In this document: positions 11,800 to 12,564 of the stretch, one piece after another
Position numbering within the stretch: position 1 is the first letter of the stretch
Layout of the letters: each line of letters starts with the position of its first letter
From: an uncultured Thermoplasmata archaeon
Lineage (GTDB): Archaea > Thermoplasmatota > Thermoplasmata > UBA10834
DNA: 64,000 nt
NCBI GenBank assembly: GCA_963719945.1
Contig: CAVRDX010000001.1
Coordinates: 608,001-672,000 of the forward strand
Direction: 5' to 3'
Notes under the pieces: model-generated
Databases searched by the model: none
What the model was told of the DNA's origin: nothing
The model's input: the letters and a program-made list of their open reading frames with translations, nothing else
Program-made: the position numbers and the translations under genes

Positions 11800-11965
11800 T
11801 GACTCAACGACCCCTTGCTCATCTGATGTATGGGTAAGTAGTCTAAAAAACGTTTGCACACTGTGAAGCCTTCGTACTCTCATTCAATTCGTGCTCATCG
11901 ATTGTCATCATGAAGAAGAAACATGAGGGAGTGATGATTCTTCGTTATCAAAATGCGAAAGTGAA

Positions 11966-11986
11966 TCAAAAGAGTATTATTATACA
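11966..11986 (+). promoter_or_regulatory. BRE/TATA-like promoter for the Lys-micropeptide transcript
   Basis: Purine-rich AAAAGAG then TTATTATA (11977-11984), about 25 nt before a hairpin leader starting at 12008. Confidence 0.55.
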
Positions 11987-12007
11987 TAACGCGCTTACAT
12001 ATTCAGA

Positions 12008-12070
12008 GATGCGTCATGAAAGTTGAGCAAAACCTGACGGTAACAGGTGCTTGATGGGGAAAGATGCATC
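12008..12070 (+). promoter_or_regulatory. Structured 5' leader (nested stems)
   Basis: GATGCGTC(12008-15)/GATGCATC(12063-70) enclosing TTGAGC/GCTTGA and ACCTG/CAGGT with loop ACGGTAA. Confidence 0.5.
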
Positions 12071-12098
12071 AATAATTCCGATAGGAGGAAAAATACCT

Positions 12099-12197
12099 AT
12101 GTCGTGCGGAAAATGTGGAAAGAAGACGAAGAAGAAAGCAGTGAAGAAGCCCGCGAAGAAGGTCGCGAAGAAGGCCGTTAAGAAAAAGAAGAAGTAA
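12099..12197 (+). CDS. 32-aa Lys-rich histone-H1-like micropeptide with N-terminal CxxC (not in ORF track)
   Basis: SD AGGAGG; MSCGKCGKKTKKKAVKKPAKKVAKKAVKKKKK, 17 of 32 residues Lys, KKxx periodicity. Confidence 0.8.
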   Translation: MSCGKCGKKTKKKAVKKPAKKVAKKAVKKKKK

Positions 12198-12238
12198 TTT
12201 TTCTTATGAGATGTTCTTCCGTCAGGAGGGTTCATTAA

Positions 12239-12328
12239 ATGCCTGCAAAGAAGAAATCCAGCAAATCTGGCAAGACGAAAAAAGCAGAGCCCAGAGGCAA
12301 GGAAATTCGAGCTAGCAGGACAAGGTGA
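12239..12328 (+). CDS. 29-aa basic micropeptide (not in ORF track)
   Basis: SD AGGAGGG; MPAKKKSSKSGKTKKAEPRGKEIRASRTR then TGA. Confidence 0.6.
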   Translation: MPAKKKSSKSGKTKKAEPRGKEIRASRTR

Positions 12329-12564
12329 GTTCCAGAGCGATGGAAGGCCCTTGGATTCTGTCCTGGGATCAAATCTCATTAAACTTCTTCTTTAATTCCC
12401 TATTTTATTGACACAATCGGACACACGGTTATCGCTCTTCACACGGTTTTCGAAGATATCGTTACGACATGAAACGAATGACTCTGCGATCGATCATGGT
12501 CTCATCAATCATTCTCAGCAAAATGACATATGCAAGATCGCGATTCACTCATGAGAAGCTTGGC

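Follow-up and report, generated by a model that had tools for sequence, protein, structure and literature searches.

The window (the whole stretch of DNA analysed, 64,000 nucleotides of an uncultured Thermoplasmata archaeon) belongs to the family UBA10834, presumably the lineage also called Ca. Gimiplasmatales; both names occur in the literature. Between a small GTPase gene and a transporter gene it contains two short basic reading frames behind a structured leader. The features are as follows.

11257..11799, minus strand: Rab/Ras-like small GTPase (Pfam Ras, E 1e-35), the divergently transcribed neighbour
11935..11968, no strand: imperfect inverted repeat, -8.2 kcal/mol in the window, not conserved
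11968..11984, plus strand: promoter elements (BRE and TATA box) for the microprotein transcript; predicted start near 12006-12008
11988..11996, plus strand: near-palindromic element between the TATA box and the start, alignment columns at least 90% conserved
12008..12070, plus strand: 5'-terminal RNA stem-loop with stem P1 (12008-15/12063-70) and inner stem P2 (12022-36/12044-55)
12083..12088, plus strand: Shine-Dalgarno (SD) sequence of ORF1; the SD and start pattern recurs across family genomes
12099..12197, plus strand: ORF1, 32 aa, CxxC head and Lys/Ala/Pro H1-like tail, net charge +17, pI 10.7
12215..12230, plus strand: local hairpin masking SD2, the ORF2 Shine-Dalgarno sequence (12224-29)
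12239..12328, plus strand: ORF2, 29 aa, basic, C-terminal GKE(I/V)RA motif, net charge +10, pI 11.6
12323..12379, minus strand: primase relic, 19 codons from the C-terminal end of a convergent primase-small-subunit-like gene that has been lost
12325..12379, plus strand: 3' stem-loop closed by 12325-29/12375-79, conserved at the genus level
12384..12409, plus strand: U-rich tract, a putative archaeal terminator; the pyrimidine tract is kept in four of four genera
12519..12531, plus strand: BRE/TATA-like element of the MFS gene; a similar word precedes the MFS start by about 20-45 nt in four of four genera
12565..13725, plus strand: MFS transporter, matched by Pfam MFS_1 only

Orthologous loci were collected, as proposed in an earlier reading of the window (the sequence-only reading). 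They come from the four genera of the family, throughout which the stretch from the GTPase to the MFS gene is conserved; the GTPase adjoins the microprotein locus in all family loci long enough to show its position. The divergent cluster on that side comprises the GTPase, amidohydrolase, RidA-like and saccharopine-dehydrogenase-like genes, with a strongly conserved TATA/BRE-like promoter at 11842-11859 (minus strand). Elsewhere in the window, at 4437-7884 (plus strand), the translations, judged by eye, show an HdrA-like gene and after it a fusion of an MvhD-like domain with an HdrC/D-like protein. A contig filed as a Paceibacterota genome (L060) carries the identical Thermoplasmata locus (compare L055 and L013) and is probably mis-binned.

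The TATA box, TTATTATA at 11977-84, had been pointed out before, and its position is conserved in the family: 34 of 37 loci have a TATA-like word 29-32 nt 5' of the leader stem, so that the stem begins approximately at the predicted start site. Comparison of the loci thus shows the position of the promoter. The inverted repeat, said to abut the BRE, does so in the window and is already broken in the three closest species (-3.5 to -4.7 kcal/mol there versus the value listed above); it is probably a chance feature.

The nested hairpin of the leader is present, conserved and covarying. In the window it folds with -22.9 kcal/mol (z -4.6), and the mean folding z of the leaders is -3.1 versus 0.07 for upstream controls. 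The 3' side of its internal loop is G-rich. Among 30 sequences P1 is 94.6% paired, with G-U pairs and 2 pairs with double changes; the covariation of P1 taken alone is modest. In the leader alignment of the window's genus 9 of 18 pairs changed on both sides, which exceeds 500 of 500 shuffles and all slid controls. With a covariance model of the leader each genome yields a single strong copy, which is also true of 14 genomes held out of model building. The Rfam search suggested in the sequence-only reading gave no match in 11000-13500 up to E 10, lysine riboswitch included. Two other candidates were rejected, namely an archaeal box C/D or H/ACA guide RNA (the C, D and ACA boxes are not kept in the alignments, and Rfam gives no match) and an upstream ORF from an AUG in the leader loop (frames 8/7/6, AUG missing in 16 of 37 loci). 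We presume that a stem-loop at the extreme 5' end would stabilise the mRNA and may serve as a protein-binding site.

ORF1, with its 17 lysines and CxxC, is a real conserved feature of the family and not a peculiarity of the window. Its 39 distinct orthologues are 20-85 aa long and consist of 55% Lys and 16% Ala, with almost no acidic residues. An N-terminal Cys is found in all 39, as CxxC in 32 and as a single Cys in 7. Of 45 family genomes 37 show the SD and start pattern, as do 12 of 12 near-complete ones; the control gave a single match in 49 genomes. Lysine is encoded by AAG in 93% of ORF1 Lys codons versus 78% in the genome and 81% in strong-SD genes, and the stop is TAA in 34 of 40 cases versus about 10% genome-wide. 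Because of the strong SD, the preferred Lys codon and the rare TAA stop, we infer that ORF1 is highly expressed. A frameshift fusion of ORF1 with ORF2 was rejected: the spacer lengths fall in all three frames.

The database searches placed neither peptide. Against PDB, Pfam and NCBIfam no family model reaches its cut-off for ORF1 or ORF2; the PDB and Atlas searches gave nothing firm, and the viral sequence search gave no match. Hc1 and Hc2 of Chlamydia are bacterial histone H1-like proteins; neither these models nor NF038053 exceed the cut-off for ORF1, and Pfam has no such match. The H1-like model NF038053 on the longest ORF1 orthologue (E 0.057, 13.7 bits versus a cut-off of 80) and a match to an HC2-containing cluster at 0.82 are weak leads. 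The predicted complex of two ORF1 copies with zinc scored 0.05.

ORF2, the second basic peptide, was also confirmed. It occurs in 29 of 39 loci and in three genera, and comparison shows coding selection on both ORFs. In the GKE(I/V)RA motif 1130 synonymous versus 347 non-synonymous pairwise differences were counted (the pairs are not independent), changes at codon positions 1, 2 and 3 number 292, 82 and 1366, and the last-residue Arg of the motif uses all six Arg codons. Within the window's genus the differences are 42 synonymous versus 6 non-synonymous, after the loss of the primase-like gene. The start is ACG in two genomes and GTG in one with the motif intact (L006:284-367, minus strand; L007:2032-2115, plus strand; L008), and two orthologues stop three codons earlier. 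The fourth genus has no ORF2, and its ORF1 is 40-85 aa long versus 20-35 aa elsewhere, which is one evolutionary event. Loci of that genus (L014, L016-L018, L020, L024, L025, L028, L030) show a small hairpin with a GGCAAGG loop 3' of ORF1; a second copy of the leader stem word also lies downstream of ORF1 there, and the conservation of this region looks nucleotide-level, not coding.

The ORF2 profile had 12 matches among 1.8 billion proteins, by sequence all apparently from the microprotein locus; many are mis-called, with ORF1 read in a Glu-rich frame, and those that carry a name are annotated as hypothetical proteins. In 400 other genomes of the phylum the profile gave no convincing match, and the ORF1 and ORF2 peptides of the window are not on record in protein databases. 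The expectation that standard gene callers miss the locus was thus justified: its ORFs are uncalled or called in the wrong frame.

The Shine-Dalgarno sequences of both ORFs are kept beyond chance. The placement of SD2 in a local hairpin is correct for the window, and masking is a tendency in the family (mean predicted pairing 0.77 for SD2 versus 0.54 for SD1, 26 loci); the hairpin sequence itself varies. Selenocysteine or read-through at the ORF2 UGA was rejected, considering that the frames beyond are unrelated or closed at once and two loci have TAA; tRNA-Sec did not exceed the cut-off in 5 genomes. The idea that ORF2 only mirrors the primase-like gene on the opposite strand was rejected as well: the latter usually terminates inside the last three to four codons of ORF2, and the changes fall on the third position of plus-strand codons.

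This primase-like gene is convergent; in two genera it occupies the gap from ORF2 to the MFS gene, and it usually shares the final three to four codons of ORF2. The intact gene in the sister genera matches Pfam DNA_primase_S; copies with a Cys-rich insert are found at L026:2053-2844 (minus strand) and L045:2378-3247 (plus strand). Two genomes have it in a decayed state, the window's genus and one further genus have lost it, and no intact copy was found in the window's own 87% complete genome. The relic in the window has the FDPR motif, spacing and frame of the intact gene in two sister genera; therefore, it explains part of the 3' sequence, including 12373-79. A 121-aa antisense ORF at 12014-12379 (minus strand), which covers both microproteins and starts inside the relic, is most likely a by-product.

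It had been proposed that ORF2 is bracketed by ATGAGAT (12206-12) and ATCTCAT (12373-79). The 7-bp complement is present, and 5-7 bp are kept in 7 of 10 genus loci; at the family level nothing remains of it (3.95 versus 4.04 bp, no better than the control). The bracket was rejected in favour of a local partner at the ORF2 stop, 12325-29, which pairs with 12373-79 and is kept better, in all genus loci. The 5' strand of the resulting 3' stem-loop is found in 11 of 11 genus loci and its 3' strand in 10 of 10 readable ones, with a coupled change in two.

The T-rich tract downstream of ORF2 was noted correctly and is kept beyond chance across genera; it persists in all four, including the two that lost the overlapping primase-like gene. 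If it acts as a terminator, a stand-alone transcript of about 400 nt would run from about 12007 to the U-tract near 12390-12410 and carry the two microprotein genes. Comparison also shows a separate promoter-like element of the MFS gene, and the latter is probably transcribed independently of the microproteins.

Let us consider the chromatin context. Among 41 family genomes a histone was found in 0, HU in 1 and Alba in 38; MC1 was found in 0 of 5. The sole HU-family match (L074, G004:C2:604-864) is possibly contamination or a mobile element. A sister family has, in one genome, a pure Cys-free H1-like ORF of 60 aa in the same place beside the GTPase (L032:1694-1876, plus strand). Relatives from Methanomassiliicoccales are expected to use uncharacterised chromatin proteins (PMC7613761).

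One of the two functions offered in the sequence-only reading was an autoregulated operon of H1-like nucleoid micropeptides. It fits the comparative data; DNA binding and autoregulation would be its conjectural parts. We believe, with about equal measures of confidence and doubt, that the locus yields a stand-alone two-gene mRNA for polycationic, H1-tail-like microproteins that would bind nucleic acids; their transcription, translation, abundance, binding and autoregulation are what we infer from sequence. The composition agrees: Lys/Ala/Pro-rich repeats, practically no acidic residues, and a tail whose repeat expansion reaches 85 aa. DNA is the favoured target because histones and HU were essentially not found, the sister family has its H1-like ORF, and the Lys/Pro/Ala repeats of AlgP, which are similar to the ORF1 tail, bind DNA in vitro (PMC9239181). 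Charge alone does not separate binding of DNA from that of RNA, ribosome, polyphosphate or membrane, and with Alba present it is not proven that a further chromatin protein is needed.

Under this H1-like interpretation, ORF1 would be the main, abundant product, a disordered polycation binding non-specifically and compacting or shielding nucleic acid. It would act like an H1 tail or protamine beside Alba, where histones and HU are essentially absent from the searches. The invariant N-terminal Cys, usually CxxC, could link ORF1 copies by a disulfide or a shared metal and make the effect redox-sensitive. ORF2 may be a minor partner with a lower output through its masked SD, which ribosomes completing ORF1 might open; the conserved motif at its C-terminus points to a specific partner contact.

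The head of ORF1 deserves separate discussion. Its nine residues, MSCGKCGKK, also open micro-ORFs of 11-26 aa with a strong SD and an early stop outside the lineage; a literature search for this motif found nothing. In Omnitrophota 6 of 351 genomes have a true SD-led micro-ORF with the head, one of them with a variant head, and such copies lie between NifU or thiol peroxidase genes and rubredoxin. In Aenigmarchaeota it is 1 of 201 genomes, after 8-oxoguanine glycosylase. Several metagenome contigs have the micro-ORF too, two of them after a flavodiiron protein with rubrerythrin and glutaredoxin nearby. A sister-family variant is a 22-aa CxxH ORF between hemerythrin and rubredoxin reductase (L041:2070-2138, minus strand). 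A 13-aa Cys-head poly-Lys micro-ORF with a strong SD was observed directly 5' of rubredoxin (L047:2022, L051:2226, L121, L122, L127, L128, L140), in redox clusters of the Omnitrophota type with Rrf2, NifU, thiol peroxidase and ferredoxin. Copies of 11-26 aa with the same or a similar head (L120:786, L124:6178, L125:6934, L138, L141, L143, L046) follow a flavodiiron, carbonic-anhydrase-like (by eye), flavoprotein-like or 8-oxoguanine glycosylase gene or stand alone. These micro-ORFs may be homologous to ORF1 or convergent with it; the copies beside oxygen-defence genes hint at a redox or metal role of the Cys head. Versions of 11-16 aa, often among redox genes, are very short for DNA compaction, which speaks against the H1-like interpretation.

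It is tempting to combine both aspects. ORF1 could then belong to an unrecognised cross-domain family of Cys-headed poly-lysine micropeptides of 11-85 aa for thiol-linked DNA condensation or shielding under oxidative stress. In a histone-lacking archaeal family it would be one of the main constituents of chromatin, with a second microprotein at its side and a new structured leader ahead of both; we regard this wider proposal as doubtful.

A different proposal makes ORF1 mainly a thiol- or metal-handling micropeptide (a redox buffer or a carrier of Zn, Ni or Fe-S), the Lys tail only localising it to polyanions. The identical head beside NifU, thiol peroxidase, rubredoxin, flavodiiron and 8-oxoguanine glycosylase genes agrees with it, as do the sister-family variant and the Cys retained in every orthologue. 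We consider it unlikely, given that within UBA10834 oxygen-defence genes do not flank the locus, the tail expands while the head does not, and CxxC is reduced to one Cys in the seven orthologues mentioned; besides, other outside copies stand by the carbonic-anhydrase-like gene or alone, and the outside sample is small and partly related.

The peptides could also be RNA- or ribosome-binding factors, ribosomal or of the hibernation type, with the leader as the autoregulatory binding site. Their size and charge resemble small basic ribosomal peptides, the ORF2 motif is specific and conserved, and the leader has a fixed spacing of 50-57 nt between the stem strands and a G-rich loop side in 30 of 37 loci. 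Matches in PDB, Pfam and NCBIfam are absent, however, the length range of 20-85 aa is unlike a ribosomal protein, and ORF2 is confined to UBA10834 and lost in one genus, so this proposal seems to us quite improbable. A 35-aa Arg/Lys-rich ORF adjoining tRNA-Trp at another place (G000:C3:13468-13575, minus strand) resembles, as we take it, the small ribosomal peptide eL41.

As to ORF2, one may suppose a regulatory, nascent-chain or coupling peptide that tunes, e.g., the convergent primase-like gene or the decay of its own mRNA. The nearly fixed distance of the motif from the stop, the masked SD, the ACG or GTG starts in three loci, the way in which ORF2 and the primase-like gene overlap tail to tail in two genera, and their joint decay in one genome, speak for it. 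Nevertheless, coding selection on ORF2 continues in the window's genus without the primase-like gene, the early stops of two orthologues shift the end by three codons, and nothing conserved remains downstream of ORF2 to regulate; we find the supposition very improbable.

Still less probable is that the GATGCRTC words act as palindromic operators in the DNA and not as a stem in the RNA. The word is near-palindromic, a similar one lies at 11988-96, and the three copies are about 20 and 55 bp apart, near two and five helical turns. The changes in the stem word are, on the contrary, G-U compatible or compensatory, the inner stem covaries, the sense strand folds better than the antisense in 28 of 31 leader loci, and the paired word occurs once in the genome. 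A dual role as RNA stem and DNA operator is a minor rival.

The other function offered in the sequence-only reading, a translation-coupled attenuator that senses Lys-tRNA, or else a long-range switch, acting on ORF2 and the MFS gene, is refuted at the sequence level, and we give it almost no credence. It relied on the 8-bp complement between 12033-40 and 12219-26, which exists in the window and two near-identical species; the helix is not conserved, and the role of a “switch” is not supported. Of random 395-nt stretches from the same genome, 57% contain a Watson-Crick complement of 8 bp whose strands are separated by at least 50 nt. The helix has a pairing probability of at most 0.002 and lies 5 kcal/mol above the best fold, and among homologues (without four near-identical loci) leader-spacer duplexes have -20.6 kcal/mol for cognate versus -20.4 for non-cognate pairs. 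The leader strand 12033-40 is kept because it is part of P2. An SD2-anchored helix slightly exceeds permutation (p 0.024 with the window left out, one of ten tests without correction, and owed to three loci), and SD2 tends to be masked; that helix, however, has at most 3 bp in 15 of 20 independent loci.

The gene content agrees no better with attenuation. The leader ORF is rich in the amino acid to be sensed (17 of 32 codons are Lys), yet its orthologues reach the lengths given above; no conserved mutually exclusive RNA structures were found among the homologous loci, and no cognate lysine gene lies downstream on one transcript, where there is only a generic MFS gene that matches none of the lysine-transporter family models. 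Both genes invoked, MFS and the lysine/saccharopine dehydrogenase-like gene, are present nearby, but the latter is part of the divergent GTPase cluster, which is read from the opposite strand, and carboxynorspermidine synthase is another member of its protein family. For the MFS gene there is a separate promoter-like element, and in two genera the convergent gene intervenes.

The organisation of DNA in Thermoplasmata without histones or HU is an open question (PMC7613761), and the surveys rest on called genes. A family-wide candidate could stay invisible so far because gene callers overlook its ORFs or read them in the wrong frame. The leader is a structured RNA without a counterpart in Rfam, and the Cys head found elsewhere suggests a larger family of micropeptides that has been overlooked. 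Peptides of 20-35 aa can be synthesised; hence, DNA and metal binding and the redox dependence are testable without culturing.

In comparison with known systems, the locus shares with attenuators and the lysine riboswitch a structured leader, a short ORF rich in a single amino acid and, in this genome, a transporter downstream; it differs from them in having no conserved alternative structure, co-transcribed lysine gene or Rfam match, and in an ORF1 of up to 85 aa. The Haloferax zinc-finger microproteins of the C(P)XCG type (PMC6562870, PMC11241148) are also archaeal, shorter than 70 aa and have the CxxCG motif; they contain two motifs per chain, whereas ORF1 is a polycation with at most one (one CxxC in 32 of 39 orthologues, a single Cys in the rest). 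The Methanomassiliicoccus luminyensis protein WP_019177984.1 (PMC7613761) is likewise small, basic and lysine-rich, proposed as a chromatin protein in a related histone-poor lineage; unlike ORF1 and ORF2, it has 74 aa, a predicted fold and bacterial homologues, and is set apart here by its description. With H1-like proteins (the C-terminal domain of Pseudomonas AlgP, PMC9239181; NF038053) ORF1 shares Lys/Ala/Pro repeats, expected disorder and a variable number of repeats; it differs in its 20-85 aa, the N-terminal Cys head, the lack of a folded domain, its archaeal origin and scores below every family cut-off. In Mycobacterium, disulfide-linked oligomers of WhiB4 can condense the nucleoid (10.1101/133181). 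WhiB4 is an Fe-S protein unrelated to ORF1 in sequence and fold; together with protamines it offers a working analogy, in which Cys-linked basic oligomers would condense DNA non-specifically. Protamines are Arg-rich, Cys-linked and condense DNA. A member of none of the tested H1-like models, the zinc-finger class, attenuators or Rfam RNAs, ORF1 resembles by its composition an H1 tail or protamine.
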